Source of the DNA: a virus | Taxonomy: Duplodnaviria; Heunggongvirae; Uroviricota; Caudoviricetes | Length of the DNA: 31,705 nucleotides | Direction: 5' to 3' (one strand) | Virus record (IMG/VR): IMGVR_UViG_3300012348_000136 | Coordinates: 64,001 to 95,705 of that record | Shown: in pieces, positions 331-14,497 of the stretch | Layout: the number at the start of each line of letters is the position of its first letter | How positions within the stretch are numbered: the first letter of the stretch is position 1 | Made by a program: the position numbers and the translations under genes | The notes under the pieces: generated by a model | The model's input: only the letters and a program-made list of their open reading frames with translations | The model's database searches: none | Told to the model about the DNA's origin: nothing

Positions 331-408
331 TTGAGTGGAAAGGCGAAGTCTTCGGACATAGATCAAACCTTGTCAGTTTGAACGCTAGGGTGACTCCTCC
401 ACTCAATC
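331..408 (+). ncRNA. tRNA-like cloverleaf (non-canonical)
   Basis: 9-bp terminal stem TTGAGTGGA/TCCACTCAA, GTC-TTCG-GAC hairpin, TCAAAC-7nt loop-GTTTGA arm, degenerate T arm. Confidence 0.35.
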
Positions 409-415
409 ATTTTCT

Positions 416-491
416 GCGTTCGTAATTCAATTGGTAGAATAACTGACTTTTAATCAGTAAGTTGCGGGATCGTGACCCGCCGGACGCACCA
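416..491 (+). tRNA. tRNA-Lys(UUU)
   Basis: GCGTTCG/CGGACGC acceptor, ACTGA-CTTTTAA-TCAGT, T loop ATCGTGA, encoded CCA. Confidence 0.92.
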
Positions 492-511
492 CTTTGTGAA
501 GCATCGGTCTA

Positions 512-519
512 TATAAATA
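512..519 (+). promoter_or_regulatory. T4-type late promoter
   Basis: TATAAATA, 5 nt before ATG 525. Confidence 0.75.
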
Positions 520-524
520 GATTC

Positions 525-1130
525 ATGAACTGCTTATTTTGCAATAAAGAATGCCATAGCGTCCGAAGCTTACGCCAACATAGCATTAGATGCATTGATA
601 ATCCAAATCGTTTACCGGCAAGCCCAGGTAATTCTGGAAAGAAGGGTTCTAATCAATTTATGAATGGACGCGGCGGGATTGTTTCAGAAGAGACTAAACT
701 GAAAATTGGAAAATCAAGTTTAGGACGCGTGCATTCAGATGAGACTAAACGAAAGATCTCCGAATCGAGAAAACGTTTCTTAGACGAAAATCCTTCTAAG
801 GTTCCATACGTACTAAATCATTCTTCTAAAGTTTCATATCCTGAGGAATACTTCATTGATTGCTTTTCAGATTTACAATCAGTAATTTATCAATATCAGG
901 TTTCTCGTTTCTCTTTAGACTTTGCAAACATTCATACGATGAAATACTTCGAAGTTGATGGTGAATTTCATTACACCGATCAAGCTGTTATTTTGAAAGA
1001 TACGATTCGCGAAGAATACTTATCTGCTCGTGGATGGAACGGAATTCGTTTAAGATGGAAGGACTTCAAGAATCTTTCTACGTCTGATCAGAAACTTAAA
1101 ATTGATGAAATTAGAAAGTTCATACAATGA
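525..1130 (+). CDS. putative homing endonuclease (C2H2-like N-terminus, NUMOD3-like repeats, DUF559/Vsr-like nuclease domain)
   Basis: CLFC..HSIRC; SEETKLKIG/HSDETKRKIS repeats; FEVDGEFH and RGWNGIRLRW; start moved from 462 (inside tRNA) to ATG 525. Confidence 0.75.
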   Translation: MNCLFCNKECHSVRSLRQHSIRCIDNPNRLPASPGNSGKKGSNQFMNGRGGIVSEETKLKIGKSSLGRVHSDETKRKISESRKRFLDENPSKVPYVLNHSSKVSYPEEYFIDCFSDLQSVIYQYQVSRFSLDFANIHTMKYFEVDGEFHYTDQAVILKDTIREEYLSARGWNGIRLRWKDFKNLSTSDQKLKIDEIRKFIQ

Positions 1131-1159
1131 CCACTTTCAGTCTACGTGTATAATCATAT

Positions 1160-1262
1160 GTACACCGTGATACTATCCGGACACCGGTAAAGACGAGATA
1201 GTTGTGCGCCTAGCATAGGGCTAATAACTCTATGAACTGCCTAGGATTCGAAAGTAATGTAC
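1160..1262 (+). ncRNA. candidate structured RNA
   Basis: GTACA/TGTAC closing stem, CTATC/GATAG, CATAG/CTATG and CCTAG/CTAGG pairings; no credible ORF. Confidence 0.25.
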
Positions 1263-1284
1263 GAAAGACTGATATAATTAAACT

Positions 1285-1497
1285 ATGAAGCCAATACTCG
1301 CCACAAGCCAATATTGCGGTCCTTGCAAACTGCTTAAAGAACGCCTTGATCCGAACTCTTATGAGGTCCGTGACATGGAAGAAAACCGTGATTTTTTCGT
1401 CGAGAACGGCATTCGCGCCGTTCCGATGCTCATCATAGGTTCCGTGAAAATCACAGGAACCGAGCAAATCCTGGCATATTTCCGTGAAAATCCGTAA
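1285..1497 (+). CDS. glutaredoxin/NrdH-like redoxin
   Basis: CGPC active site, GIRAVPMLII motif, 70 aa. Confidence 0.85.
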   Translation: MKPILATSQYCGPCKLLKERLDPNSYEVRDMEENRDFFVENGIRAVPMLIIGSVKITGTEQILAYFRENP

Positions 1498-1512
1498 CTG
1501 ATTGGTTTTCAA
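1493..1512 (+). repeat. dispersed 20-bp motif CGTAAsTrATTGrwwwTCAA (copy 1)
   Basis: near-identical copies at 19483-19502, 24463-24482, 24509-24528. Confidence 0.7.
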
Positions 1513-1539
1513 CGGGATGAAAATTTGTGAATTTTTTTA

Positions 1540-1568
1540 TTTACAAGTCCGCAAAAACCTGTTAGAAT
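1540..1568 (+). promoter_or_regulatory. sigma70-like early promoter
   Basis: TTTACA-17-TAGAAT. Confidence 0.8.
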
Positions 1569-1677
1569 AATTCTGTAAGGAAACGGTAGAAACAAATTCT
1601 GCCGCCAACTTTCCCTCCGAATCTGAGGTTCGGCTGAAACTGTTCTTTCGCAAACTGAAAAATTCTGAAGATTTTGA

Positions 1678-1706
1678 TTTACAAGACGGGAACTTCCTGT
1701 TAGAAT
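1678..1706 (+). promoter_or_regulatory. sigma70-like early promoter
   Basis: TTTACA-17-TAGAAT. Confidence 0.8.
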
Positions 1707-1821
1707 AAATTCACGATCGGCAACGGTACAACCCGTCGCATGAATCGCCTTCGGAAACAGATTTTCGATTGTAACACGTTCTTTGACATTCAAACTTTGA
1801 AAGGAGTCCTTCGGTCCCTTT

Positions 1822-1957
1822 CACCATACAAGGCCGCGAGTCAAATCGCGTCTGATCAGTAACTCCCCGGATCGGGTTGAGAGAAAATCAGTATGTCAAC
1901 CGATAAATTTTCGTCGAAACTGCTAAGTGCACTTCGGCTAGGGACTAGGAGATGGTG
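1822..1957 (+). ncRNA. candidate structured RNA
   Basis: CACCAT/ATGGTG closing stem, CGCGA/TCGCG hairpin, ATCGG-GTTGA/TCAAC-CGAT stem. Confidence 0.3.
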
Positions 1958-2066
1958 TAATAATGAAAGCACGAGTCCGACATTTTGTAAAAAGAAAAGG
2001 CCGTATCTCGACAAGAGAAAGTATAAAAGACGCCGGTTGAGCCTAGCAACCAACAAATTTTCATAT

Positions 2067-2145
2067 GGGGTGTGAGTAAGGACGACTCGGTTTGGCAAAG
2101 TCAATTAAAACCCGAGGAACGGTTCGACTCCGTGACACTCCACCA
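2067..2145 (+). ncRNA. tmRNA tRNA-like-domain-only RNA (alanine-identity acceptor, no D stem, no reading frame)
   Basis: GGGGTGT/ACACTCC-A-CCA with G3.U70; 10-nt unpaired D region then GAC as in the tmRNA at 8204; CTCGG/CCGAG closes a 21-nt loop; T loop TTCGACT. Confidence 0.6.
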
Positions 2146-2162
2146 ATTTACAACTGGACTCG

Positions 2163-2243
2163 GTATGAGTGGCGATGTTCTCAGTGGGATTAAGTTCCCG
2201 CCTTCGGGTTGCTGAGGTTGTATGCCTGTTCTAAAGCTCATAC
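2163..2243 (+). ncRNA. candidate structured RNA
   Basis: GTATGAG/CTCATAC closing stem, inner CTCAG/CTGAG and GGGA/TCCC-type hairpins. Confidence 0.25.
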
Positions 2244-2255
2244 AAGATTTTCAAT

Positions 2256-2340
2256 GCTGCAGTCGACTAATGGTAGGTCCCCAGACTTTCAATCTGGTAG
2301 CGAAAGCTTCGTGCGGGTTCGACTCCCGTCTGCAGTTCCA
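2256..2340 (+). tRNA. tRNA-Glu(UUC), long variable arm
   Basis: CCAGA-CTTTCAA-TCTGG; 15-nt V region with AGC-GAAA-GCT hairpin; CCA. Confidence 0.85.
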
Positions 2341-2640
2341 CTTTTGAATGAAAACCATAACATGGTGACAACCGGATAGGTCGAGTATGTGGACCGAAGA
2401 AGCTCAGTACTCATTCGTTCAATCTTTAAGGCGAAGGTCCCAATCGTAAGTGCCTGCAGCACGAGAAGATAAAGTAATTAAACGTACAGATGGACGCGTA
2501 CCACCGTTTGTGATGATAGGAAGACCCCAGGTCGCCTCGCGCGAAGTAAGGAAACCGAACATGCCCGTGTTCATCACAATAAAGTTATTCACGGGAGATT
2601 TTCAACTGAGTCGGAGATTAGAGGTAAGTTGAGTAACAAC

Positions 2641-2753
2641 GCCCTGGTAGGTTAATAGGTAAACCGACATGCTTCATTCAATGGTACCAAACGATGAAGG
2701 CATGTGTGTACAGCATGAAAATGTAGATCTGGGTTCGATCCCCAGTCGGGGCT
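2641..2753 (+). tRNA. tRNA body with 29-nt anticodon loop (22-nt excess); apparent UCA anticodon, identity unresolved
   Basis: GCCCTGG/TCGGGGC acceptor, GGTT/AACC D stem, ACATG/CATGT anticodon stem, long V arm, CTGGG-TTCGATC-CCCAG; no encoded CCA. Confidence 0.6.
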
Positions 2754-2814
2754 GCTCTAATAAATAACGAGGCGTCGTTCCACGCCTACAAGATTCGGTA
2801 AGTTTTCAAACATT

Positions 2815-2895
2815 CATTGCAAAGCTCGTAGTCATGACCGAGCGGTGGTCCATAAGTATGCACATACAAAAGCCAGTTCGACTCTGGGTGCAATG
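2815..2895 (+). ncRNA. anticodon-less tRNA-like RNA
   Basis: CATTGCA/TGCAATG acceptor, GCTCG/CGAGC arm, CCAG-TTCGACT-CTGG T arm, no 7-nt anticodon loop. Confidence 0.45.
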
Positions 2896-2907
2896 GTAAT
2901 TTTTCAA

Positions 2908-2984
2908 CGGGATGTAGCTCAGCTTGGTAGAGCGCTGCGTTTGGGACGCAGATGTCGTCGGTTCGAATCCGGCTATCCCGACCA
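2908..2984 (+). tRNA. tRNA-Pro(UGG)
   Basis: canonical cloverleaf, CTGCG-TTTGGGA-CGCAG, CCA. Confidence 0.95.
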
Positions 2985-2996
2985 ATTTCAAAACAT

Positions 2997-3081
2997 GGGC
3001 TGGTGTGGCCGGGCTGAGCTGGCGATCATCATGATAGTTCGAAAGAACCTTAAGGAAGTTTGAATCTTCCGCTGTCCGCCA
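2997..3081 (+). ncRNA. degenerate Ser/Sec-like tRNA body with zipped UCA loop
   Basis: GGAAG-TTTGAAT-CTTCC T arm, G73-CCA, GTTC-GAAA-GAAC V arm, ATCA-TCA-TGAT. Confidence 0.4.
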
Positions 3082-3091
3082 ATTTCAATAT

Positions 3092-3176
3092 GGGTAGTTC
3101 GCATAGCGGCAATTGCAGGAGACTGTAAATCTCCCCTCTTCGGAGTACATTGGTTCGAGTCCAATACTGCCCACCA
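3092..3176 (+). tRNA. tRNA-Tyr(GUA)
   Basis: GGAGA-CTGTAAA-TCTCC, long V arm, CCA. Confidence 0.95.
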
Positions 3177-3266
3177 CTTTATAAATTCGTTCACGTGGTG
3201 GTGACGATTACAGGAGCCTAGGTCCCTACACTGTGTCTTTGCTACACAGAACCTTTAATTTTCAAT

Positions 3267-3351
3267 GCGTGTGTGGGTCAACGGCTGACCATCTGACTCT
3301 TAATCAGCGGAAGAAATTCCTATGCAGGTTCGAATCCTGTCGCACGTACCA
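3267..3351 (+). tRNA. tRNA-Lys(CUU), long variable arm
   Basis: CT-CTT-AA loop; 15-nt V region GGAA-GAAA-TTCC; CCA. Confidence 0.85.
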
Positions 3352-3363
3352 TTTTCAATAAAT

Positions 3364-3499
3364 GCCTGTTGTGCAGAATAGAAACAAAGCGTCATGTAGC
3401 AACCCTCACATGACGATGGAATGACGAAAAGCACTAGCTGAACTGATCATTCAGCGCAAAACTTAAAGCTATGAGGTTTACGCTTTGGGTCAGGCGCCA
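3364..3499 (+). ncRNA. CCA-ended multi-stem RNA
   Basis: GCCTG/CAGGC-G-CCA ends; CGTCATG/CATGACG; GCTGAA-CTGATCA-TTCAGC; AAAGC/GCTTT. Confidence 0.35.
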
Positions 3500-3508
3500 C
3501 TTTCAAAT

Positions 3509-3583
3509 GGGCTGTTAGTATAACGGATAATACGCTGCGCTACGAACGCAGACATCCAGGTTCGATTCCTGGGCGGCCTACCA
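3509..3583 (+). tRNA. tRNA-Arg(ACG)
   Basis: CTGCG-CTACGAA-CGCAG, CCA. Confidence 0.93.
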
Positions 3584-3593
3584 TTTTCAATAT

Positions 3594-3670
3594 CCGAGAG
3601 TAGCTTTAATTGGTAAAAGCCCTCCCTGTGAAGGAGCACAATGTGGGTTCGACTCCCACCTCGCGGACCA
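3594..3670 (+). tRNA. tRNA-His(GUG), A73, no genomic G-1
   Basis: CT-GTG-AA loop; CCGAGAG/CTCGCGG-A-CCA; preceding base T. Confidence 0.88.
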
Positions 3671-3705
3671 TTTTCTCGATGCGGTTTGCAGACTGTATCG
3701 GACAA

Positions 3706-3835
3706 GTAAGCGAACATAAGAACGCATGATGCTGCAACTGATTGCAAGTAAGATGAGGTAATAGCATAGTAGGAGTGCACGGGGCGAGGAGCCTCGAGGC
3801 ATTGGTGCAAATCCAATTTACTTTCTGTCGCTTAC
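3706..3835 (+). ncRNA. structured RNA with nested T-arm module
   Basis: GTAAGCGA/TCGCTTAC outer stem; AAGTAA/TTACTT stem stacked on ATTGG-TGCAAAT-CCAAT. Confidence 0.35.
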
Positions 3836-3849
3836 AAGTTTTTCAATAT

Positions 3850-3925
3850 GGGCTCGCATGTTCCTCGGGGGCGAGAAGCACTTGCAATGCATCTGTGGCC
3901 GGTTCGATTCCGGTCGGGTCCACCA
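3850..3925 (+). tRNA. tRNA-Ala(UGC)
   Basis: G3.U70, CT-TGC-AA, A73-CCA; atypical D arm. Confidence 0.85.
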
Positions 3926-3935
3926 ATTTCAAAAT

Positions 3936-4029
3936 GTGGTTCATCGGAAGCAGTCTTTAGGTGGGCTGAGGTGACTGTCGCTCAAAGCGAGAAACACCCT
4001 ATGCCAGTCCCTCCCGATGAACCACGCCA
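3936..4029 (+). ncRNA. RNA with perfect 12-bp terminal helix ending G-CCA
   Basis: GTGGTTCATCGG/CCGATGAACCAC followed by GCCA. Confidence 0.5.
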
Positions 4030-4033
4030 CTCT

Positions 4034-4120
4034 GGGCAGCGAGAACTGTGGGTAAGTAAAAGGAGATTCGACCTCTCCATTCTCTGGCTAGTCACTATCA
4101 GGATGACAACCTGACTGCCC
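4034..4120 (+). ncRNA. structured RNA with internal D/T elbow mimic
   Basis: GGGCAG/CTGCCC; GAGAA/TTCTC around GGAGA-TTCGACC-TCTCC; TCAGG/CCTGA hairpin. Confidence 0.4.
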
Positions 4121-4138
4121 GAATTTTTCATAAGTAAT

Positions 4139-4213
4139 GCTGGCATCGTCTAATGGTCAGGACGCATCCCTTTCAAGGATTAAATACGAGTTCGATTCTC
4201 GTTGTCAGTACCA
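4139..4213 (+). tRNA. tRNA-Glu(UUC)
   Basis: ATCC-CTTTCAA-GGAT, short V arm, CCA. Confidence 0.92.
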
Positions 4214-4221
4214 ATCTTTAA

Positions 4222-4296
4222 CCACGTGTAGCTCAGAGGCAGAGCAGACGCCCGATAAGCGTCAGGTCGTGATATCGTAATTCACCACGTGGACCA
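4222..4296 (+). tRNA. tRNA-Ile(GAU), atypical C33 and T loop
   Basis: CCACGTG/CACGTGG, GACGC-CCGATAA-GCGTC, T loop ATCGTAA, CCA. Confidence 0.8.
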
Positions 4297-4303
4297 CTTT
4301 TAT

Positions 4304-4393
4304 GGAGGTATGACAGAGCGGTAATGTATCTGTTTGCTAAACAGCAGTCACCCTTGACCGGGTGCGTCGGTTCGATCCCGGCTGCCTCCGCCA
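4304..4393 (+). tRNA. tRNA-Ser(GCU)
   Basis: TT-GCT-AA loop, long V arm, G73-CCA. Confidence 0.93.
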
Positions 4394-4402
4394 CTTTCAA
4401 AT

Positions 4403-4480
4403 GGGCCGTACCCTTGTGGGCATCCAAAGCAGTGAAATGCAGAGGTTAGGTAATAAGTTGGACGATACCAACACGGCACA
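4403..4480 (+). pseudogene. degenerate tRNA-like element
   Basis: GGGCCGT/ACGGCAC ends and GTTGG/CCAAC T-like arm; no canonical loops or CCA. Confidence 0.3.
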
Positions 4481-4490
4481 CGCTTTCAAT

Positions 4491-4565
4491 CGCGGGTTAC
4501 TCGAGTGGTTCAGAGGCGGGTCTCATAAGCCTGTTACGTCGGTTCGAATCCGACACCCGCAACCA
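4491..4565 (+). tRNA. tRNA-fMet(CAU), initiator type
   Basis: C1.A72 mismatch, CGCGGG start, CT-CAT-AA, CCA. Confidence 0.88.
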
Positions 4566-4567
4566 AT

Positions 4568-4643
4568 GGCTCGTTCGTTCAACGGATAGGACTGCGTTCT
4601 TCTAAAGCGACAATGATGGGTTCGATTCCCTCACGAGCTACCA
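4568..4643 (+). tRNA. tRNA-Arg(UCU)
   Basis: CT-TCT-AA loop, CCA. Confidence 0.88.
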
Positions 4644-4789
4644 CTTTTCTGCAATGAGGGCATGGGGATGATTGGTTTCCCAAGAGCATGTGCAAGGACG
4701 CAACGATGAGTCCGTTTCCATACGGACCTACCAATGACCTGAATCTAAACTCTTCTAGGTGAGCGACCTGATCAGAACTAATTTTCAAT

Positions 4790-4866
4790 GGCCGTGTAGC
4801 CGAATAGGTATAGGCAACGAACTTAAAATTCGTAATTTGTGGGTTCGAGTCCCACCACGGCTACCA
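4790..4866 (+). tRNA. tRNA-Leu(UAA), short variable region
   Basis: ACGAA-CTTAAAA-TTCGT; V region only AATTT; A73-CCA. Confidence 0.88.
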
Positions 4867-4872
4867 TTTTTA

Positions 4873-4933
4873 GATTGGTGTTCTTTATCCACTAAGAGAC
4901 CTGTATTGGCATGGTTCTTGAGGAACACCGATC
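4873..4933 (+). ncRNA. long hairpin spacer RNA
   Basis: 12-bp GATTGGTGTTCT/GGAACACCGATC plus inner stem. Confidence 0.3.
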
Positions 4934-4939
4934 TCTCAT

Positions 4940-5015
4940 GCGCTTGTAGCTCAATGGTCAGAGCTCCCGACTCATAATCGGTAGGTTACAGGTTCGAATC
5001 CTGTCGGGCGCACCA
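4940..5015 (+). tRNA. tRNA-Met/Ile2(CAU), elongator type
   Basis: paired G1-C72, CT-CAT-AA, CCA. Confidence 0.9.
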
Positions 5016-5024
5016 AACATCTTA

Positions 5025-5126
5025 GCAGTAGAGAGGAAAACTCAGCCATGATGGTTGTTGGCGGTTCCTCAGAGGAAGTCGTGTTCCTCTTAGTGTAAAT
5101 GTCGAATCACGAATCAAGCACACTGC
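5025..5126 (+). ncRNA. candidate structured RNA
   Basis: GCAGT/ACTGC closing stem; GAGGAA/TTCCTC and AGAGGAA/TTCCTCT hairpins. Confidence 0.3.
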
Positions 5127-5137
5127 AAAATTTCAAA

Positions 5138-5214
5138 TCCTGAGTAGCTCAGTGGCAGTTAGCGGTGCACTGTTAATGCATAGGTCGTTGGTTCGATCCC
5201 AACCTCAGGAGCCA
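5138..5214 (+). tRNA. tRNA-Asn(GUU)
   Basis: TCCTGAG/CTCAGGA, CT-GTT-AA, G73-CCA. Confidence 0.92.
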
Positions 5215-5343
5215 ATTTAATTGTGGGAAGCTAATTGGAGCAATAGACAATTTCTGATCGGATGTCTAAGTAAAGCATTTACTGAATGCAACATATCATA
5301 TAATGGAAACCTTTTTAAGAAATTTCTAAATCTTTATAATAAA

Positions 5344-5429
5344 GCTGAAGTCGCATAGTGGTCGATTGCACCTGCCTTGTAAGCAGGATGGTTTCCGCGC
5401 CGTGGGTTCGAATCCCACCTTCAGCTCCA
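5344..5429 (+). tRNA. tRNA-Thr(UGU), extended variable region
   Basis: CCTGC-CTTGTAA-GCAGG; 14-nt V region; CCA. Confidence 0.88.
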
Positions 5430-5453
5430 AACATTTTTCGTTGAGTAGTGATA

Positions 5454-5583
5454 TGAATTGGTTACTTCTATTGTTACAGACGGGGTGAAGGTTCGAATCC
5501 TTCGTCGAGAACAGAGTGCATTCGTAGAGTGCATTCCGTTCTCGGCTAGCTTAATGGTTAGAGCACGAAAAAATACCAAGTCA
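5454..5583 (+). ncRNA. circularly permuted tRNA mimic (YrlA-type Y RNA topology)
   Basis: order T arm (5487-5503) > 9-bp acceptor-like hairpin (5504-5546) > D arm TA-GCTT-AATGGTTA-GAGC (5547-5564); ends pair TGAATTGGT/ACCAAGTCA. Confidence 0.7.
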
Positions 5584-5602
5584 GACTGTTCTCTCGACGA
5601 AT

Positions 5603-5677
5603 GCATCCGTAGCTCAGTGGTAGAGCACAGGTTTGATAAACCTGGGGTCGTTGGATCGTTCCCAACCGGGTGTACCA
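5603..5677 (+). tRNA. tRNA-Ile(GAU)
   Basis: CAGGT-TTGATAA-ACCTG, T loop ATCGTTC, CCA. Confidence 0.92.
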
Positions 5678-5686
5678 ATTTTCAAT

Positions 5687-5771
5687 GCGTGTGTGAGATA
5701 ATGGTTGTCTAGCTGCCTTTTAAGCAGAGGAGGAAACTCCAAAGTGGGTTCGATTCCCACCGCACGTACCA
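5687..5771 (+). tRNA. tRNA-Lys(UUU), long variable arm
   Basis: CT-TTT-AA; 15-nt V region GGAG-GAAA-CTCC; acceptor identical to 3267 tRNA; CCA. Confidence 0.85.
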
Positions 5772-5776
5772 CTTTG

Positions 5777-5784
5777 TATAAATA
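5777..5784 (+). promoter_or_regulatory. T4-type late promoter
   Basis: TATAAATA, 5 nt before ATG 5790. Confidence 0.75.
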
Positions 5785-5789
5785 AAACC

Positions 5790-6056
5790 ATGACAAACGA
5801 TCTACTTAAGACAATTGAAGGAGTTCTTCGCGAAGAAGACATATTAAACGAATCCGTCAATAAATCTGAATACTCTGAAGTATCAAAGGCTATTGATACA
5901 ATCTATGGATCATTTTCTCCAACTAGTTCTTTCTCCAAAAGCTTAGTGAAATTGGATTCAGCTTATGCAGCTGACGTTAAGAAAATCCGAGAGCACATTG
6001 TTGCAATTGACAACATTTGGCAAGATCTGCGAAGCGAATTGGATAGTATGAATTAA
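5790..6056 (+). CDS. hypothetical late protein
   Basis: 88 aa ORF filling inter-tRNA gap behind late promoter. Confidence 0.75.
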   Translation: MTNDLLKTIEGVLREEDILNESVNKSEYSEVSKAIDTIYGSFSPTSSFSKSLVKLDSAYAADVKKIREHIVAIDNIWQDLRSELDSMN

Positions 6057-6057
6057 T

Positions 6058-6132
6058 GCTTGTGTAGCTCAGCGGTAGAGCAAGGAACTCTAAATTCCGT
6101 CGTCGTGGGTTCAAATCCCACCATAAGCACCA
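6058..6132 (+). tRNA. amber suppressor tRNA (CUA)
   Basis: perfect cloverleaf GCTTGTG/CATAAGC, loop CT-CTA-AA, A73-CCA. Confidence 0.88.
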
Positions 6133-6140
6133 CTCTTAAA

Positions 6141-6148
6141 CATAAATA
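6141..6148 (+). promoter_or_regulatory. late-promoter variant
   Basis: CATAAATA, 5 nt before ATG 6154. Confidence 0.55.
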
Positions 6149-6153
6149 CAAAT

Positions 6154-6774
6154 ATGAAAACAAACGCATAGGTACAAAATGTTCTTGATGACATGTCGAG
6201 AACACAACAAACGGAAACACAAACAGTATTGGATCATGGCTTAAGTGTGTGGTCTTTTTCAGAACGAATCTTGAAGAAGGATACATCTGACATGAAGATA
6301 CCAACTTGGTTTATTGATCATTATAGTTTCATCCTTGACAATTTGCATAGCGTTGAGATCATCAAAGAATACAATGTAATGCATGATTGTGGCAAGCCAT
6401 ACTGTTTAGAGATTGATGAGAATGGTAAAAGACATTTTCCCAATCATGCTGCGGTTTCCGAAAGAACTTATCGCGCTTTGCCGTATTCCAAAGATGAGGT
6501 TGCACGCCTAATTGGTCTTGATATGTTGTTGCATACCGCAACTGCCGAAGAGGTCAATGCGCTTAACTTAAGCATCGCTGATGCATTTACTTTGCTTCTA
6601 ACTGCTTTCGCTGAAGTTCATTCAAATGCAAGTATGTTTGGAGGTACTGATAGCATATCCTTTAAGTCAAAGTGGAAGAAACTTGATCGAAGAGGTAAGA
6701 TGCTAGTTTTAGATTTTTATGGAAGTCGCCCGGATGGACGAGGACACTGTCTTGAAAACAGCTGGGGCCTATAA
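6154..6774 (+). CDS. HD-domain phosphohydrolase-like protein (in-frame TAG at codon 6; alternative start 6193)
   Basis: VLDHG...MHDCGKP...HFPNHA...DMLLH; ATG 6154 is in frame with 6193 via TAG 6169-6171; last 54 nt overlap tRNA-Ser. Confidence 0.65.
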
Positions 6775-6809
6775 AGCCCTCGTGGGTTCGAATCCCACGG
6801 CTTCCGCCA
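6721..6809 (+). tRNA. tRNA-Ser(UGA)
   Basis: CT-TGA-AA, long V arm, G73-CCA. Confidence 0.92.
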
Positions 6810-6814
6810 CTTTT

Positions 6815-6893
6815 GGGTGTTGCTGATGTTGGCTCCGAAAATCGTAGTGATCTTATGAAGGTCAGCGGTTCGCGATGCCGCCTTCACTCGCCA
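6815..6893 (+). pseudogene. degenerate tRNA-like RNA, apparent AUG anticodon
   Basis: TGATC-TTATGAA-GGTCA arm, GCGG/CCGC arm with 9-nt loop, G-CCA end. Confidence 0.35.
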
Positions 6894-6901
6894 TTTCTCC
6901 T

Positions 6902-6994
6902 AAAATGCGGAAAATGCAGACTTTACGGGTAAATATCCGTTTCGGCTGCAAATTTTCCCCGAATTTCCTCTTTACAGGCATTTTTCCGCATTTT
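6902..6994. repeat. 16-17 bp inverted repeat
   Basis: AAAATGCGGAAAATGC ... GCATTTTTCCGCATTTT. Confidence 0.6.
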
Positions 6995-7026
6995 TGAAAC
7001 TTTTTTCACTTTTGTGAATTTTCTTG

Positions 7027-7055
7027 TTTACATTGGCTGAAATTTGGTGTATAAT
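7027..7055 (+). promoter_or_regulatory. sigma70-like early promoter
   Basis: TTTACA-17-TATAAT. Confidence 0.85.
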
Positions 7056-7063
7056 GGCGCTGT

Positions 7064-7396
7064 ATGGAACCGCTAAACATGAAAACGCTAGCCGCTCAGG
7101 TGGCACGTATTCAGGCGATTTTCGACACGCTTACGCCACATGCGCGTATAAGCACCGATTATGCGCCTGACGCTGACGGGTACCTGTCAATCCCTATCGT
7201 CATTGAAGGGGCTGACCCTGATTACCCAGCATATATTGAATTGGCGCCGCCTGATGGCTATGATGAAACAGCGGCGCTTGGCATTGACGCACAAAATGTA
7301 TTTGAGAAATTCAAATATTCCGCAAATGCGCTTACAGGCATCAAAGAAAAGCATGCTAAACAGCTGCTTAATTTGGCTGCCGATTATATGATGTAA
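7064..7396 (+). CDS. hypothetical early protein
   Basis: 110 aa ORF right after early promoter (alternative ATG 7079). Confidence 0.75.
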   Translation: MEPLNMKTLAAQVARIQAIFDTLTPHARISTDYAPDADGYLSIPIVIEGADPDYPAYIELAPPDGYDETAALGIDAQNVFEKFKYSANALTGIKEKHAKQLLNLAADYMM

Positions 7397-7408
7397 TTGA
7401 AAACACCC

Positions 7409-8086
7409 ATGGCAAAAAGTATCACAAAAATCATTGATGATTGCGGGAACATTCGTGTCACCCTCAATCAGGTGCATTGGCGCCGTATGCATTGCATTCA
7501 GCGTACATATGCTAGGCTGTTCGGAATTTCCGTAAAGGTCGCCGCAGGCTTAAATCAGTATTATCATTACAAAGGCGGCGGGTACCCTCGTGAAAATTCA
7601 CCGCCTCGCTATGCTGATGCTGCCGACAAGCTTGCAAATATGTTCATCGGCGCTGATTACATTGGCGAAAGCCATATCATTAACAAGTACCTTGAGCGTA
7701 ATTTCGGGCTTAAGCTAGTGCGCACAAAAGCTGCTCCGCCGCTAAAAATGCGCAAAATCACAAAGGACCTTAATAAGAACTTTGTGGCTGGCAAGCTTGA
7801 ACACCTTAAGGGAATTTCTGATCCTCAAGAAATGTTCATGGCGCTGTTGCATGAAATGGACGCTACACAAGGCACCATTTGCCAAATGTCCGATCAAATC
7901 AAGTATGCTGGCTTTGCCAATGCTTCAAGCCAAATGAAAAGCGGTAAGCTTAAGAAAAGCTCATTCTTGAAAATCGTTGGCACAAAGGCAGCCGCAATCC
8001 GCTCGCAAGTTAAAGGAACACAACGCAAACGTGATTCAATTGACGACGCGGTGCTGATGTGCGACACGCTTAAAGACTGTGTATAA
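7409..8086 (+). CDS. hypothetical basic early protein
   Basis: long ORF tandem with previous gene; ATG 7409 preferred over TTG 7397. Confidence 0.75.
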   Translation: MAKSITKIIDDCGNIRVTLNQVHWRRMHCIQRTYARLFGISVKVAAGLNQYYHYKGGGYPRENSPPRYADAADKLANMFIGADYIGESHIINKYLERNFGLKLVRTKAAPPLKMRKITKDLNKNFVAGKLEHLKGISDPQEMFMALLHEMDATQGTICQMSDQIKYAGFANASSQMKSGKLKKSSFLKIVGTKAAAIRSQVKGTQRKRDSIDDAVLMCDTLKDCV

Positions 8087-8089
8087 ATA
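8082..8089 (+). promoter_or_regulatory. T4-type late promoter for second RNA block
   Basis: TATAAATA followed by GCGGGGC-GCAA-GCCCCGC hairpin and tRNA-Ala. Confidence 0.6.
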
Positions 8090-8121
8090 AATTCACGCGG
8101 GGCGCAAGCCCCGCTTCATAT

Positions 8122-8197
8122 GGGCCTGTAGCTCAATTGGTAGAGCATCGCATTTGCATTGCGAGGGTTGAGTGTTCGAGTCACTTCAGGTCCACCA
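8122..8197 (+). tRNA. tRNA-Ala(UGC)
   Basis: G3.U70, TT-TGC-AT, CCA. Confidence 0.93.
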
Positions 8198-8203
8198 CTT
8201 TAT

Positions 8204-8539
8204 GGGGATGTTTTGGTTTCGACATAACTGGAGAAACAGCATCTGCAATCAAAGGTCTGCACGACCTCTTAAGTGCAAAAACACAAAAGGCGAAAATACC
8301 TTAGCTCTCGCTGCTTAAGCGGCGATCGTTTATCATTGACTCCTCTATTTGATAAGCGAACGACAGAGGATATCATGCATAGAGAAGATATGCTACGAAG
8401 TGTATAAGAGATGATACACTCGGGCGCTGTTCCGTTATACAGCTAGTCAGTCAGCTGACAATAAATGCTGAATATGATTGTAGGACAGATGCTGATGCAC
8501 TGGTTGTGGACACGGGTTCAACTCCCGTCATCTCCACCA
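8204..8539 (+). ncRNA. ssrA: tmRNA, inferred tag (A)GENTLALAA
   Basis: GGGGATG/CATCTCC-A-CCA with G3.U70; pk1 GGTC/GACC + TGCAC/GTGCA; GGC GAA AAT ACC TTA GCT CTC GCT GCT TAA at 8289-8318. Confidence 0.93.
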
Positions 8540-8550
8540 ATTTCTATAAC

Positions 8551-8610
8551 GCGAGTGTCGCATAGTGGTCTATTGCACTTCATTGCCAATGAAGATTTCG
8601 CAGGTTCGAG
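8551..8610 (+). pseudogene. 3'-truncated tRNA-Gly(GCC)
   Basis: intact 5' acceptor strand, D arm, CTTCA-TTGCCAA-TGAAG, GCAGG-TTCGA, then breaks off. Confidence 0.75.
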
Positions 8611-8623
8611 AAAGTTCGGTTTG

Positions 8624-8631
8624 TATAAATA
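8624..8631 (+). promoter_or_regulatory. T4-type late promoter
   Basis: TATAAATA, 5 nt before ATG 8637. Confidence 0.75.
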
Positions 8632-8636
8632 CTCGT

Positions 8637-9338
8637 ATGAACTACCAAGCTGCATACGACCATCTTATTGCATATCGTCGCGAACACCCCGCCGCCGGAT
8701 ACACCGAAAAACATCACATAGTCATGCGCTCAATGGGTGGATCCAATGTTCCCACCAACCTGGTAGTTCTAACTGGTAGAGAACATTGGATCGCCCACCT
8801 ACTCTTACATAAGATACATTGCAATTCGCAGACAATGTATGCTTGTCACATGATGGCAATGCGATGTGAAGAACGTGGTATAGCATACATTAAGAACTCG
8901 CGAATGTATGAAAAGATTCGCAAAGAGTGCGCAACATTAACATCGATGCGTATGCAATCTTCACAATCAGGTAAAGGAAATTCACAATACGGAACACGTT
9001 GGATTTGCAACATTCTATCAAAAGAGAATATGAAGATTTCTAAAGATGATATGATTCCTGATGGTTGGGTTAGTGGTCGTAATAGGTGGATTGTAAAACA
9101 TAATACTAAACCGAAAAGGGATAAGCTTGATAAGATGTTATGTATAACTGACGGTGTTCATAACAAAAGAATTTATTACACTGATCAATTACCTATTCCC
9201 GATGGATGGTTTATTGGTATCACTTATAGTAATTCTCATATGTCTAGCATAAAGAATGCTAGAAGAAAACATAATTTTTCATTAAAAGGATCTTCTGGTC
9301 AAGGAGGCTGGAAGAAACGAAATGCGGGTATGGTGTAA
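8637..9338 (+). CDS. HNH homing endonuclease
   Basis: EKHHIVMRSMGGSNVPTNLVVLTGREHWIAHLLL; repeated IPDGW..G motifs; stop lies inside next tRNA. Confidence 0.88.
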   Translation: MNYQAAYDHLIAYRREHPAAGYTEKHHIVMRSMGGSNVPTNLVVLTGREHWIAHLLLHKIHCNSQTMYACHMMAMRCEERGIAYIKNSRMYEKIRKECATLTSMRMQSSQSGKGNSQYGTRWICNILSKENMKISKDDMIPDGWVSGRNRWIVKHNTKPKRDKLDKMLCITDGVHNKRIYYTDQLPIPDGWFIGITYSNSHMSSIKNARRKHNFSLKGSSGQGGWKKRNAGMV

Positions 9339-9397
9339 TGGTAACACACGAGTCTGCCAGTCTTGTACCGAGAGTTCGATTCTCTCTACCCGTACCA
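9324..9397 (+). tRNA. tRNA-Gly(GCC)
   Basis: GCGGGTA/TACCCGT, CT-GCC-AG, CCA. Confidence 0.85.
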
Positions 9398-9404
9398 CTC
9401 TAAT

Positions 9405-9478
9405 TGCCCATTAGCCTATTGGTAAAGCGCGTGTCTCTGAAACACGAGAAGAATGTTCGATTCATTCATGGGCCGCCA
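9405..9478 (+). tRNA. tRNA-Gln(CUG)
   Basis: CGTGT-CTCTGAA-ACACG, weak 1:72 pair, G73-CCA. Confidence 0.88.
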
Positions 9479-9483
9479 ACTTA

Positions 9484-9491
9484 TATAAATA
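9484..9491 (+). promoter_or_regulatory. T4-type late promoter
   Basis: TATAAATA, 5 nt before ATG 9497. Confidence 0.75.
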
Positions 9492-9496
9492 CATAT

Positions 9497-9754
9497 ATGA
9501 ATATTCATAATCAATTACTGGAGGCGTGTTTTAATGCTCTTAATGAAAAAGCGCTCCAATTATTTTTTATATCGTCTAAAGAGGATGGCGAACAATATGT
9601 ATATGCTGCATCTAAAGAAGAAGCTGATTTAAAGTTAAAAGGAGAATCTAAACAAATTACAGCATCCGAGTTTAAGAAACGATTGGCAATTGCACATGAT
9701 AATTTAGATAAAGCACAAAGACAAGTTAATCGTATGTTAAACGTCGGTAAATGA
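9497..9754 (+). CDS. hypothetical late protein
   Basis: 85 aa; start moved out of tRNA-Gln to ATG 9497. Confidence 0.75.
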   Translation: MNIHNQLLEACFNALNEKALQLFFISSKEDGEQYVYAASKEEADLKLKGESKQITASEFKKRLAIAHDNLDKAQRQVNRMLNVGK

Positions 9755-9759
9755 TTAAT

Positions 9760-9844
9760 GCCGCAATGATGAAATGGTAGCACATGCTGGTTTCAAAAAC
9801 CAGTGCCTAACGGCGTGTGGGTTCGAGTCCCACTTGCGGTACCA
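9760..9844 (+). tRNA. tRNA-Leu(CAA)
   Basis: TT-CAA-AA, long V arm, A73-CCA. Confidence 0.93.
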
Positions 9845-9851
9845 ACTTTTG

Positions 9852-9954
9852 ATTCGAGTGGGGGAATTGGTATACCCTGGCTTAAGTTGCCTGTGAGATG
9901 AAAATCTTGCCGCCTCGACGTGGGTGTTTGTAGGTTCGAGTCCTACCTCAGAAA
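9852..9954 (+). ncRNA. tRNA-Leu-like RNA with two-hairpin expanded variable region
   Basis: Leu-type D arm GGG..TGGTATA-CCC, perfect GTAGG-TTCGAGT-CCTAC, ~37-nt V region, imperfect acceptor, no CCA. Confidence 0.5.
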
Positions 9955-9982
9955 GCACGTCGCATAATCAAAACACTTATAT

Positions 9983-10057
9983 GCTCCTATAGCTCAGAGG
10001 AAGAGCGCATCCTTGGTATGGATGAGGTCGAGATTTCAAAATTCTCTAGGAGCTCCA
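9983..10057 (+). tRNA. tRNA-Thr(GGU)
   Basis: CATCC-TTGGTAT-GGATG, CCA. Confidence 0.88.
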
Positions 10058-10061
10058 TTTT

Positions 10062-10149
10062 GCGCATGTGGTGTAATGGTAAACACGTCATCTTGAGGAG
10101 GTGATGCAGCATGTTCTGCGTGTGGGTTCGAGTCCCACCATGCGCACCA
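10062..10149 (+). tRNA. tRNA-Leu(GAG)
   Basis: TT-GAG-GA, long V arm, A73-CCA. Confidence 0.93.
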
Positions 10150-10375
10150 AAGATCTTATAGAACAACCTTATAATAGAAACGTTCTATATGAATTAAATA
10201 TGATAAACATATAAAATATAAGGGACGATCTATCTGTCGTTGACGATGTGTAGGCCACACTTTACGAGGCAGCTCTGGATATAGCACGCGTGCCGTCCCG
10301 CAATTTTCCCGTCTTAACTTATTGTCAAATATAAATATAGATATGTAGAATCTTGATTCACAGGATTCCAAATTC

Positions 10376-11252: not shown

Positions 11253-11504
11253 ATGACAGTTACCGCCACACAGCAGCTGCAAATTGAAATTAGTAAAGAG
11301 GAGCAACGTCGTATTGCGATTCGAACAATTCGAGAAGCAGCTAAGTGGGTAGAAGGAAATTACATTTCAGATGGAAAGCTAATGCTACGTGAAAGGTATT
11401 TAACTTCACATAGCTGGACTGAAGATGTTGTTGTCCGTGACGCAACTCCACTTGATCTTGCAACTGATCTACTGATTAAACATATTCTTTCTTCTCCACT
11501 ATAA
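11253..11504 (+). CDS. hypothetical protein
   Basis: 83 aa, first gene after promoter, coupled to next gene. Confidence 0.75.
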   Translation: MTVTATQQLQIEISKEEQRRIAIRTIREAAKWVEGNYISDGKLMLRERYLTSHSWTEDVVVRDATPLDLATDLLIKHILSSPL

Positions 11505-12022
11505 TGAGTGTATACTTTATCGGCGATCCACACCTAGGTCATCGCAACATCGCTAAGTTTCGCCCTTGGGTCAACAGCTGCGAACACAACACTGAACTCT
11601 TTACTTCCGAATGGCGTAGGGTGATTCGCAAGCGTGACGACATCTATATGATGGGTGATGCTGCATTTGATCAGGAATCACTTGATCTTATTGGTAACCT
11701 ACCAGGCCGCAAGATCTTGATCAAAGGTAATCATGATGACTACGTTTCAACCGCAAACCAAGCTGCGGTGTTTCATGAAATTCATGGCATGCTGAAGTAC
11801 AAAGGGATGTGGCTGACGCACTGCCCAATTCATCCTGACGAAATGCGAGCACGCAAGTGTAATGTTCATGGGCACGTTCATAACGCAACAATTATGCGTG
11901 GCTGGGGTCCTTGGCGTAAGCCTGATCCTCGTTACATCAACACATGTGTAGATGTCTTATGGCCACAACGCAACTCTTTCTTTATTTCATTGGACGAAAT
12001 TAAACAACTGACTGAAAAATAA
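11504..12022 (+). CDS. calcineurin-like metallophosphoesterase
   Basis: GDPH, GD, GNHD, HCP, HGHVH motifs. Confidence 0.9.
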   Translation: MSVYFIGDPHLGHRNIAKFRPWVNSCEHNTELFTSEWRRVIRKRDDIYMMGDAAFDQESLDLIGNLPGRKILIKGNHDDYVSTANQAAVFHEIHGMLKYKGMWLTHCPIHPDEMRARKCNVHGHVHNATIMRGWGPWRKPDPRYINTCVDVLWPQRNSFFISLDEIKQLTEK

Positions 12023-13312: not shown

Positions 13313-14497
13313 ATGAAAGCACAAATTGTAATTGACACTTCTTTTGGTGATGGTGGTAAAGGCCTGACGGTGGATAATCTCTGCCGTCAGGCCGTCCGTC
13401 GCGGTGAGTCTGTAGCGGTTGTTCGCTTTAGCGGCGGTCAGCAATGTGGACACACCGTGATTCGTGATGGAGTGAAGCATGTCTTTTCTACGTATGGTTC
13501 TGGAACTCTTCAATGTATTCCTACTTATTATACTGAACATGCGACGATGAGTCTGCAGGCAACAATGACAGAGTATTTTGCTCTGCGTGAAAAGGGTATA
13601 GAGCCAAAGCTGTATTTCCATCCTCAGACGCGTCTTACTACGCCATATGATGTTGCTTACAATCGTGCAAAAGAAAGTGCTGCTTACTCTGGTGGTCGAG
13701 CAGGTGATGTTCGACATGGGAGCTGTGGCATGGGAGTTGGCGCTACTCTAAAGCGTCATGACGAAACGCCATACAAGATTTATGCAAGCGATTTGCTTTA
13801 TCCTCAGCTATTAAGTCAAAAGCTCGACAGCATTAAAATGTACTATGCACGTAAAGTTCATTCTGAAGCTCTTAATGATAGTGACGGTCTTGGATACGGT
13901 CAATCATTTTACAGTGCTTTTCATTCTGAAGTAAATGAGCAACTTGAATCTTTCGAAGCAGCTCTTGAACTAAGCAAACAACATGCTGCATTTGAAATTG
14001 CTAACCTTTACCCAAACCAATTTCGCAATTTGATCTATGAAGGTTCTCAGGGAGTTCTTCTTGACATGGATCATGGTATCTTTCCAAACGTAACTTACGG
14101 TAACACAACTTGTAAGAACGCAATTGAACATGCGTCGTGCTTAGGTATTCGCGACATCGAATTGTTTTATGTGTCGCGTTGCTATCTCACACGTCATGGT
14201 CGCGGATGGATGCCAAATGAAACTCCAGTCACTCTTGTAAATACTGATGAAGAGATTAACGTCACCAATCCTTGGCAAGAGCATCTGCGAATTGGAGAAC
14301 TTGACTATGACCTAATCAACTATGCATTAAATGTTGACGCTGGATATCATCGTGATTCCTATCGTCGTAACATGGTGATTACTTGTCTTGATCAGCGTCC
14401 CGATTGGAAACTTGACACCACGCGTCTTCCATACTACATTCAAGGAGTTTACACAAATGCATCTCCGCAAGCTGACTCTTGGGTGCTTACAAAATAA
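13313..14497 (+). CDS. divergent adenylosuccinate synthetase (PurA-family) protein
   Basis: FGDGGKG, GHTV, EGSQG.LLD, YLTRHG motifs. Confidence 0.88.
   Translation: MKAQIVIDTSFGDGGKGLTVDNLCRQAVRRGESVAVVRFSGGQQCGHTVIRDGVKHVFSTYGSGTLQCIPTYYTEHATMSLQATMTEYFALREKGIEPKLYFHPQTRLTTPYDVAYNRAKESAAYSGGRAGDVRHGSCGMGVGATLKRHDETPYKIYASDLLYPQLLSQKLDSIKMYYARKVHSEALNDSDGLGYGQSFYSAFHSEVNEQLESFEAALELSKQHAAFEIANLYPNQFRNLIYEGSQGVLLDMDHGIFPNVTYGNTTCKNAIEHASCLGIRDIELFYVSRCYLTRHGRGWMPNETPVTLVNTDEEINVTNPWQEHLRIGELDYDLINYALNVDAGYHRDSYRRNMVITCLDQRPDWKLDTTRLPYYIQGVYTNASPQADSWVLTK

Follow-up and report, generated by a model that had tools for sequence, protein, structure and literature searches.

Phage tRNA clusters are usually viewed as codon-supply or anti-defence kits, and over-long matches to tRNA models within them tend to be labelled as introns. 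Among the closest described systems, YrlA RNAs (RF02553; Chen et al. 2014, PMC4201824) combine a tRNA-like module, an RNase P substrate with acceptor, D and T arms, with a second, protein-binding module; Lak megaphages carry short tRNA introns (Devoto et al. 2019, PMC6784885); theta ribozymes (Kienbeck et al. 2024, PMC10879173) lie directly 3′ of CCA-less phage tRNA or tRNA-like genes; and two-piece permuted and tRNA-like-domain-only phage transfer-messenger RNAs (tmRNAs) carry a tRNA-like and a second domain. Here we analysed a locus in the tRNA array of a tailed phage (Caudoviricetes) represented by G000, a 95.7-kb IMG/VR viral contig estimated to be ~50% complete. Its bases 64001–95705 form the window, that is, the whole 31,705-nt stretch of DNA under analysis, and all coordinates below refer to the plus strand of the window unless another contig is named. 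Positions 2641–2753 had been read in an earlier note as a tRNA whose anticodon is masked by a self-complementary insertion and which might be activated by cutting and ligation or serve as a decoy. Judged from sequence comparison, this segment is probably the tRNA-shaped domain of a composite non-coding RNA of ~193 nt (2606–2798), which would neither decode nor contain an intron.

The domain 2641–2753 is built of a 7-bp acceptor including two G·U pairs (GCCCTGG, 2641–2647, with TCGGGGC, 2746–2752), a D arm (GGTT/AACC, 2650–2665) in which G18 and G19 are present, a stem (ACATG, 2667–2671, with CATGT, 2701–2705) enclosing a loop of 29 nt (2672–2700), a T arm with a TTCRA-type loop (CTGGG-TTCGATC-CCCAG, 2729–2745) and the discriminator U2753. 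The earlier note had described these four arms and the long loop, and each named base pair was found; its pairing of CTTCAT (2672–2677) with ATGAAG (2694–2699) and its statement that removal of 22 nt would give GAA, TAA or TCA, depending on the junction, were equally borne out. It had missed an extra 23 nt (2706–2728) between the ACATG/CATGT stem and the T arm. The Rfam tRNA model matched the domain with 42.5 bits (E = 8e-8; gathering score 29) under permissive filters, whereas the default Rfam scan missed it, and ARAGORN called it solely with introns allowed, as Ser(cga); the orthologue in a related contig, L002, was called Gln(ctg), which shows that the choice of junction is arbitrary. The cloverleaf of a canonical elongator tRNA, with its 7-bp acceptor, D arm, T arm and covarying helices, is present, but where such a tRNA has a loop of 7 nt with U33 and a conserved anticodon, this locus has a 29-nt loop or, alternatively folded, two hairpins, and no anticodon loop was shared among the homologues in L002, L115, G006 and L111. 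Nor is a CCA encoded after U2753 (GGGGC-T-GCTCTAAT), whereas each of the window's 26 canonical tRNA genes has one, so that 2641–2753 is the sole CCA-less gene among the window's 27 tRNA-like genes; a search of the 95.7-kb record found no gene for a CCA-adding enzyme. Elsewhere in the array, a second CCA-less match to the tRNA model (3755–3825, 42.3 bits), uncalled by ARAGORN, has the anticodon loop CGAGGAG with G at position 33.

Folding of 2606–2802 retained the cloverleaf and added two outer helices, P1 and P2, formed between its leader and trailer. Starting just 3′ of a spacer motif (ATTTTCAA, 2598–2605) that lies 35 nt upstream of the cloverleaf, the leader consists of the 5′ strand of P1 (CTGAGTC, 2606–2612), a junction GGAG (2613–2616), the 5′ strand of P2 (ATTAGAG, 2617–2623), and a tail GUAA with a small hairpin H1 (GTTG-AGTAA-CAAC; together 2624–2640) that abuts the 5′ end of the acceptor. 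The trailer consists of a linker G and the 3′ strand of P2 (CTCTAAT; together 2754–2761), a stretch (2762–2791) comprising the junction AAATAACG, the hairpin H2 (AGGCGT-CGTTCC-ACGCCT, 2770–2787) and ACAA, and the 3′ strand of P1 (GATTCGG, 2792–2798). P1, P2 and H2 thus form a three-way junction, in which leader and trailer pair mutually and enclose H2. The acceptor stem runs into P2 through a link of 2 nt at the usual position of the CCA, and this U/N73-G-P2 link was preserved in all topologies described below. The first junction was purine-rich in all members (GGAG, AGAG, GGAA, GAG or AG), and the H2 pattern, AACGAGGCGUC-NNN-CCACGCCUA, is part of a 27-nt core (AACGAGGCGTC-NNN-CCACGCCTA) that was almost invariant across 29 IMG/VR loci and cultured phages. 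No family of Rfam 15 except tRNA matched the unit. With this core, covarying P1 and P2, and the 2-nt link to P2, the locus belongs to a provisional class of H2 three-way-junction RNAs.

Homologues and covariation carry this assignment. A protein encoded inside the array led to the contigs L002 and L003, in which an orthologue of 113 nt lies in synteny, flanked by tRNA-Glu and tRNA-Pro. Outside a 20-nt loop core, the window and L002 were ~95% identical, on par with the best tRNAs of the array, and the acceptor of L002 showed a G·U to C-G double change; of the 20 nt between CTTC and GAAG, merely 6 positions were in common. In BLAST, conservation set in precisely with the spacer motif (2598) and extended to about 2809, and the preceding 257 nt gave no alignment. 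Another contig, L115, has the same upstream flank and downstream tRNA-Pro, a unit of exactly 193 nt and a domain of 113 nt; its D-to-T region is unrelated in sequence to that of the window and compatible with the two-hairpin fold alone, so that the exact lengths of unit and domain are common to the window, L002 and L115 despite an unrelated D-to-T region. Using the 197-nt unit as query, nhmmer found a match (E = 2e-10) in a distant phage, G006, with a virion protein 42% identical, in which the leader (AGATTAGAGGTAAGTTGA...ACAAC) and trailer (TGCTCTAATAAACAACGAGGCGTC...CCACGCCTACAA) were nearly unchanged and the acceptor, D arm and T arm were preserved through compensatory changes. G006 has neither the insertion nor the extra arm, and its arm is a closed hairpin (CCGACA-TGATA-TGTTGG) of 6–7 bp with a loop of 3–5 nt; therefore, deleting the insertion fails to restore a tRNA.

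To quantify covariation, five type-B units were aligned with a hand-given structure comprising P1, P2, H1, the acceptor, the T arm and H2. An automatic helix finder and an automatic register for L114 proved unreliable, and L114 was parsed by eye and kept outside the count. Pairing was retained in 97.7% of cells, and 16 of 36 pairs had changed on both sides; none of 500 shuffles reached any of the five covariation measures, and sliding the partner strand by 1–3 columns lowered pairing to 36–46%. Both-side changes affected six of the seven pairs of P1, which joins 2606–2612 to 2792–2798, and five of the seven acceptor pairs; P2 (2617–2623 with 2755–2761) paired in 100% of cells with two compensatory pairs, the T arm was compensatory as well, and the six H2 pairs showed no variation. 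P2 differs in sequence in Psa21, L109 and L120. These data bear on the possibility that the locus is a decaying tRNA pseudogene, drifting without function after an insertion or duplication in its anticodon loop. The unrelated loop cores of the alleles, a direct repeat (ATGAAGGCATGT/ATGAAAATGT) suggestive of a past duplication and a modest fold z-score of −2.0 would fit such decay, but the ~95% conservation outside the core, the 16 compensatory pairs with acceptor and T arm included, the exact 113/193-nt length in three alleles and the homologues in distant phages make it extremely unlikely. Exact-pattern scans with the tRNA body and with a CTTC-N20-GAAG scaffold found no allele beyond the L002 type, and an RF00005 scan of 15 related viral records found no further over-long tRNA matches. 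A 359-kb phage, G001, has two over-long tRNA matches, one of them an element without H2 (L010:17433–17541). This tRNA-like gene (Rfam 54 bits) lacks an encoded CCA, whereas all 25 typed canonical tRNAs of its array have one; its anticodon-loop insert of ~35 nt holds the palindrome AAAGCTTT, and a 35-nt deletion would yield a CU-UUU-AA (Lys) loop.

Scanning IMG/VR for the trailer hairpin H2 yielded 17 and then 29 loci, on contigs ranging from AT-rich to GC-rich, and the H2 junction was present in about 25 phage contigs. Among cultured phages H2 was found in Pseudomonas phages Psa21 and D6 and, with a one-base variant, in Erwinia phage pEa_SNUABM_29 and Escherichia coli phage Jgk1, and in more diverged form in several 47-kb Vibrio phages. 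In all clear cases H2 is one arm of a three-way junction, the sequences of P1 and P2 varying by phage while their complementarity stays. Three circular permutations were distinguished. Type A reads domain-N73-G-P2a-H2-P1 hairpin-J-P2b-G(G/U)NA (Psa21, L109, L113, L119, L125 and L126); type B reads P1b-GGAG-P2b-GUAA-domain-N73-G-P2a-H2-ACAA-P1a (the window, L002, L115, G006, L111, L114, L120, L123 and L139); and in type C, represented by L106, the opening lies where P1 and P2 join. Most members carry a tRNA-like domain on P2, whereas that of some GC-rich contigs is not tRNA-like, and the shapes run from nearly canonical tRNAs to non-tRNA hairpins. The anticodon arm of the domain ranges from 5 bp with an ACGG tetraloop (L108, L116 and L112), through 8 bp with a 7-nt loop in Psa21 and a near-canonical form in L139, to branched structures of 50–90 nt (L111, L109, L113 and L114). 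The H2 family is uncatalogued in Rfam and widespread among unrelated phages.

Bacterial genomes gave 12 matches to the H2 pattern, including three clear module copies: L138, a repeat of IMG/VR provirus L120, and two on contigs of metagenome-assembled genomes (L135 and L139). At least three others are coincidental 19-base matches in high-GC coding sequence for D-E-A-S-x-H-A-Y (L132, L136 and L143, from a Corallococcus and two Methylobacterium); because the pattern recurs by coincidence in coding sequence, GC-rich matches need to be checked for P1 and P2. In Vibrio phage 1.106.O (L144, observed over 1900–2300 and 2330–2640), the module-bearing RNA ends in an intrinsic terminator within a divergent regulatory intergenic region of ~900 bp, and therefore the module behaves there as a discrete small-RNA gene. 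The intergenic region holds many TTACACGGAA/ATGACACGG repeats resembling iterons or operators. No neighbouring gene was conserved across six module contigs, whose flanks encode an HNH nuclease, a Cas4-like nuclease, a methyltransferase and head proteins. Several candidate roles were rejected. Mimicry of a host RNA was not supported by blastn of the H2 region against 5,426 E. coli genomes, which gave no match; for a guide or antisense role, neither G000 nor L002 contained a complement of either 20-nt core when up to 5 mismatches were allowed, and no 11-mers were shared; and for a link to Ro60 and Y RNA, 2 of the 23 records with the module, and none of the seven complete ones, carried a TROVE gene, though the window itself encodes a TROVE protein.

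The strong conservation of the core also raises the possibility of catalysis: the junction module might cleave itself or otherwise act as a catalytic RNA and trim the CCA-less tRNA or tRNA-like domain at its 3′ side, in functional analogy to the theta ribozymes of gut phages, which are related to the hepatitis delta virus (HDV) ribozyme (PMC10879173). In all topologies 2 nt separate the module from the acceptor stem of a domain without CCA, its 27-nt core is extremely conserved, circular permutation is tolerated as in small ribozymes, and the theta ribozymes supply a precedent. Its helices, however, are strictly nested: the double pseudoknot of HDV-like and theta ribozymes (P1, P1.1, P2, P3 and P4) was not found, and neither an HDV model nor any other Rfam ribozyme family matched at E ≤ 10. 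By inspection the junction strands are unlike a hammerhead core, and a manual check rejected an HDV-like as well as a hammerhead junction. An invariant paired stem is more typical of protein recognition, and many of the attached domains are unable to decode, so that 3′ maturation would serve no translational purpose. A ribozyme acting in 3′ trimming is therefore quite unlikely.

A further explanation, in line with the cut-and-ligate reading of the earlier note, is an intron-bearing tRNA, most plausibly tRNA-Phe(GAA) and less so Leu(UAA) or a UCA opal suppressor, from which a protein endonuclease would remove 22 nt before the halves are rejoined; the leader and trailer would then be a mere processing scaffold. 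It is consistent with an intact cloverleaf under selection with compensatory acceptor changes, and a number of observations favour it and weigh against a composite, non-decoding RNA. Phe is the only amino acid without a tRNA among the 43 tRNAs of the array, which cover the other 19, and the L002 array has the same sole gap; the CTTC/GAAG flanks conserved in the window and L002 permit a CU-GAA-GG loop; and G37 after GAA also occurs in the Phe tRNAs of phage G001. Short anticodon-loop inserts do occur in the clade, as the CCA-encoding tRNA-Thr of L002 carries one of 46 nt, and the unexplained tRNA introns of Lak phages are a precedent (PMC6784885). Moreover, L139, L113 and Psa21 retain a 7-nt loop with U33, and therefore some members of the family may decode. 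The missing ligases reported below are weak evidence, because about half of the genome is absent from the record. The tRNA-Thr(GGU) genes of L002 (12536–12656) and the window (9983–10057) are ~97% identical apart from this AT-rich insert and differ by a clean polymorphism, the short insert being present in the one and absent from the other.

Splicing is nevertheless hard to reconcile with the comparative data. The orthologues share no anticodon, junction or insert, and L115, with the same flanks and 113 nt, has neither CTTC...GAAG nor a recoverable GAA loop, while the insert-free loop of G006 has 3–5 nt. Of the features of eukaryal and archaeal pre-tRNA introns, neither a bulge-helix-bulge motif (two 3-nt bulges 4 bp apart) nor a 37/38 junction with anticodon-intron pairing was present, the helix being 5 bp, a 1-nt bulge and 6 bp closed by a 16-nt loop, with a junction ambiguous between GAA, TAA and TCA. 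The insert of 20–22 nt matched no intron family and did not contain a group I core (P1–P9, at least 200 nt). In G000, as far as its ~50% completeness allows, searches with PF01139, PF09511 and PF09414 gave no match, and hence no RtcB, Rnl1- or Rnl2-type ligase; the control for PF09511 also matched nothing, and EndA was not searched. An opal suppressor is implausible because UGA is a common stop codon: the 72 open reading frames of at least 150 aa in G000 end in TAA (47), TGA (23) or TAG (2). The near-avoidance of TAG fits the CUA suppressor tRNA at 6058–6132. The discriminator of bacterial tRNA-Phe is A73. The locus has U73, whereas the G001 Phe tRNAs have A73; it also lacks the CCA of the window's other tRNAs and carries 23 additional nt before the T arm. 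We regard an intron as unlikely, given that GAA cannot be obtained from L115 or G006, that the discriminator position holds U and that the CCA is missing. The spliced-tRNA and masked-anticodon reading is thus largely refuted; as for the decoy, a non-decoding tRNA look-alike survives, not as a stand-alone molecule but as part of a larger conserved RNA.

In that composite RNA, the region replacing the anticodon arm (2667–2724) is the least conserved part and has two possible folds. The first consists of an 11-bp bulged hairpin and a weak extra arm. The second, missed by the earlier note, lies within ~2 kcal/mol of the first and is the one picked by Infernal; it has a basal stem ACAT/ATGT (2667–2670/2721–2724), hairpin I (2672–2699), hairpin II (CATGT-GTGTACA-GCATG, 2701–2717) and AGAT as a variable loop of the normal 4 nt. 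The loop of hairpin I is centred on an 8-nt palindrome (TGGTACCA, 2682–2689), and loop palindromes also occur in L002 (GCTCGAGC), L111 (TTCGCGAA), L115 (ATGCAT/GCATGC) and L114 (TCTAGA). In the window and in L002, L111 and L115, hairpin I has a stem of 5–6 bp and a loop of 15–18 nt with the palindrome in its middle; the loop of L114 has 9 nt. The sequence of the arm is unrelated across three close alleles, and the former anticodon arm is a freely evolving expansion with a lineage-specific palindromic loop. An 8-mer palindrome anywhere in the 59-nt expansion arises in ~18% of shuffles, and the palindrome statistic is post hoc, which counts against giving a single palindrome weight; what makes it unusual is solely that palindromes of unrelated sequence recur in this one apical loop. 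In duplexfold calculations, the loop palindrome added 2 intramolecular pairs compared with 6–8 intermolecular pairs, on the basis of which the palindromic loop may mediate loop-loop dimerisation.

The same palindromes could instead act at the level of DNA. Anticodon regions of tRNA genes are frequent sites of dimeric DNA-binding and DNA-cleaving proteins, and the dyad with its central palindrome (2667–2705) might be the site of a dimeric homing endonuclease, recombinase or restriction-like enzyme. Five lineages have a central loop palindrome of 6–8 bp, the array contains homing-endonuclease genes, and the core has been replaced like a cassette, which is suggestive of recombination. The surrounding helices, however, covary as RNA does and accept G·U, neither another copy of the core nor a target for it was found in the genome, and the palindromes are wholly different between close relatives, so that no single protein site is conserved. 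A DNA-level feature is consequently very unlikely.

The array around the composite RNA occupies G000 60666–74149, beginning 3.3 kb upstream of the window. ARAGORN with the intron option made 43 tRNA calls in it, the element at 2641–2753 included, plus a tmRNA; between 416 and 10149 of the window lie 26 canonical tRNA genes, the tmRNA and an amber-suppressor tRNA. The full tmRNA is at 8204–8539, and tmRNA models matched nowhere else. The homing-endonuclease genes of the array are at 462–1130 and 8565–9338. In the flanks of 29 RNAs (400–10150), a motif (A/T)TTT(T)CAA(T) stands directly 5′ of nearly every RNA start, right after the preceding CCA, and is probably a shared processing context. The tRNAs at 2256–2340 (Glu), 3267–3351 (Lys), 5687–5771 (Lys) and 5344–5429 (Thr) are 85–86 nt long with a hairpin in the variable region, capped by GAAA in the Glu and both Lys tRNAs; the L002 orthologues of two of these four have 75 nt. 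At 4790–4866 lies a 77-nt type-I tRNA with a short variable loop and the Leu anticodon UAA, whereas the other Leu tRNAs of the array have 85–88 nt. Non-canonical structured RNAs lie between tRNAs at 2060–2146, 2815–2895, 3000–3081, 3849–3925 and 3937–4032, most of them with a 7–12-bp terminal helix ending in NCCA; that at 2815–2895 ends in G-TAA, resembling the P1 end of the 2606–2798 unit. The phage also encodes PurZ, a Ro60/TROVE protein, NAMPT, RNR and DnaB. Just 3′ of the array are genes for a phosphoesterase (11504–12022), a PurZ-like adenylosuccinate synthetase homologue (13313–14497), from which a 2-aminoadenine genome is possible, and a Ro60/TROVE-vWA protein (14910–16217).

How the composite RNA might work can be outlined in steps, each of which we put forward tentatively and with less than even confidence. 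RNase P would cut at G2641, as at tRNA 5′ ends, and the two resulting pieces would be held together by P1 and P2, which would make a type B RNA equal to the single-piece type A RNA of Psa21, comparable to permuted and two-piece tmRNAs. H2 and the A-rich junction strands would be a sequence-specific functional site, either a ligand for a widely conserved factor or a catalytic core. The tRNA-like domain may be a handle for processing or for proteins that bind the elbow or acceptor, and the palindrome in the loop of hairpin I would permit loop-loop homodimerisation. As a bolder and rather unlikely extension, the H2 junction might be a new class of phage RNA, a self-processing ribozyme or a high-affinity ligand of a universal bacterial factor, while the hypervariable palindrome on the tRNA arm would direct lineage-specific dimerisation and serve as a self/non-self tag between co-infecting relatives.

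Whatever its function, at least some over-long tRNA matches are domains of larger conserved RNAs. The 27-nt core is common to phages of Pseudomonas, Erwinia (with the one-base H2 variant), Gram-positives, Alphaproteobacteria and uncultured freshwater hosts, which suggests either catalysis or a partner shared by many bacteria. For annotation, tRNA finders run with an intron option give such genes meaningless anticodons, as with Ser(cga) and Gln(ctg) here, and the cultured carriers Psa21, D6, pEa_SNUABM_29 and Vibrio phage 1.106.O make the function directly testable.

Compared with known systems, the unit resembles YrlA in joining a tRNA-like module to a second module and in that both often lie in or near phage tRNA clusters (PMC4201824). 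In YrlA, however, the T arm comes first, then the acceptor hairpin and the D arm, and the free ends lie where the anticodon would be (PMC4201824), whereas the unit has the normal arm order with the acceptor end joined to the junction, and RF02553 did not match it; it is thus not a YrlA or Y RNA. The Lak introns likewise give over-long matches to tRNA models, and in Lak phages and the window alike the anticodon-loop insert is far too short for a group I intron (PMC6784885). The Lak inserts, however, sit in otherwise normal tRNAs, are identical wherever present and have uninterrupted alleles that are normal tRNAs (PMC6784885), whereas the window's element has no allele restoring a 7-nt loop, an insert that is its most variable part, no CCA, and a conserved leader/trailer junction. 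Theta ribozymes share the placement of a structured RNA directly 3′ of CCA-less phage tRNA or tRNA-like genes (PMC10879173), but they are double pseudoknots, whereas the unit is a nested three-way junction without similarity in sequence or covariance model. The two-piece permuted and tRNA-like-domain-only phage tmRNAs also pair a tRNA-like with a second domain, and permuted genes give a base-paired two-piece RNA; the unit, in contrast, has no alanine identity (no G3·U70) and no tag reading frame. Two further likenesses are analogies only, without homology: the dimerisation initiation site of HIV-1, an apical loop with a purine-flanked 6–8-nt palindrome that varies by lineage within a constant design, and the phi29 packaging RNA (pRNA), a three-way-junction RNA that tolerates permutation and makes loop-loop contacts, although no Rfam pRNA model matched. 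Collectively, these comparisons link the element to the tRNA-mimic non-coding RNAs of phages, among which it represents an uncatalogued family.

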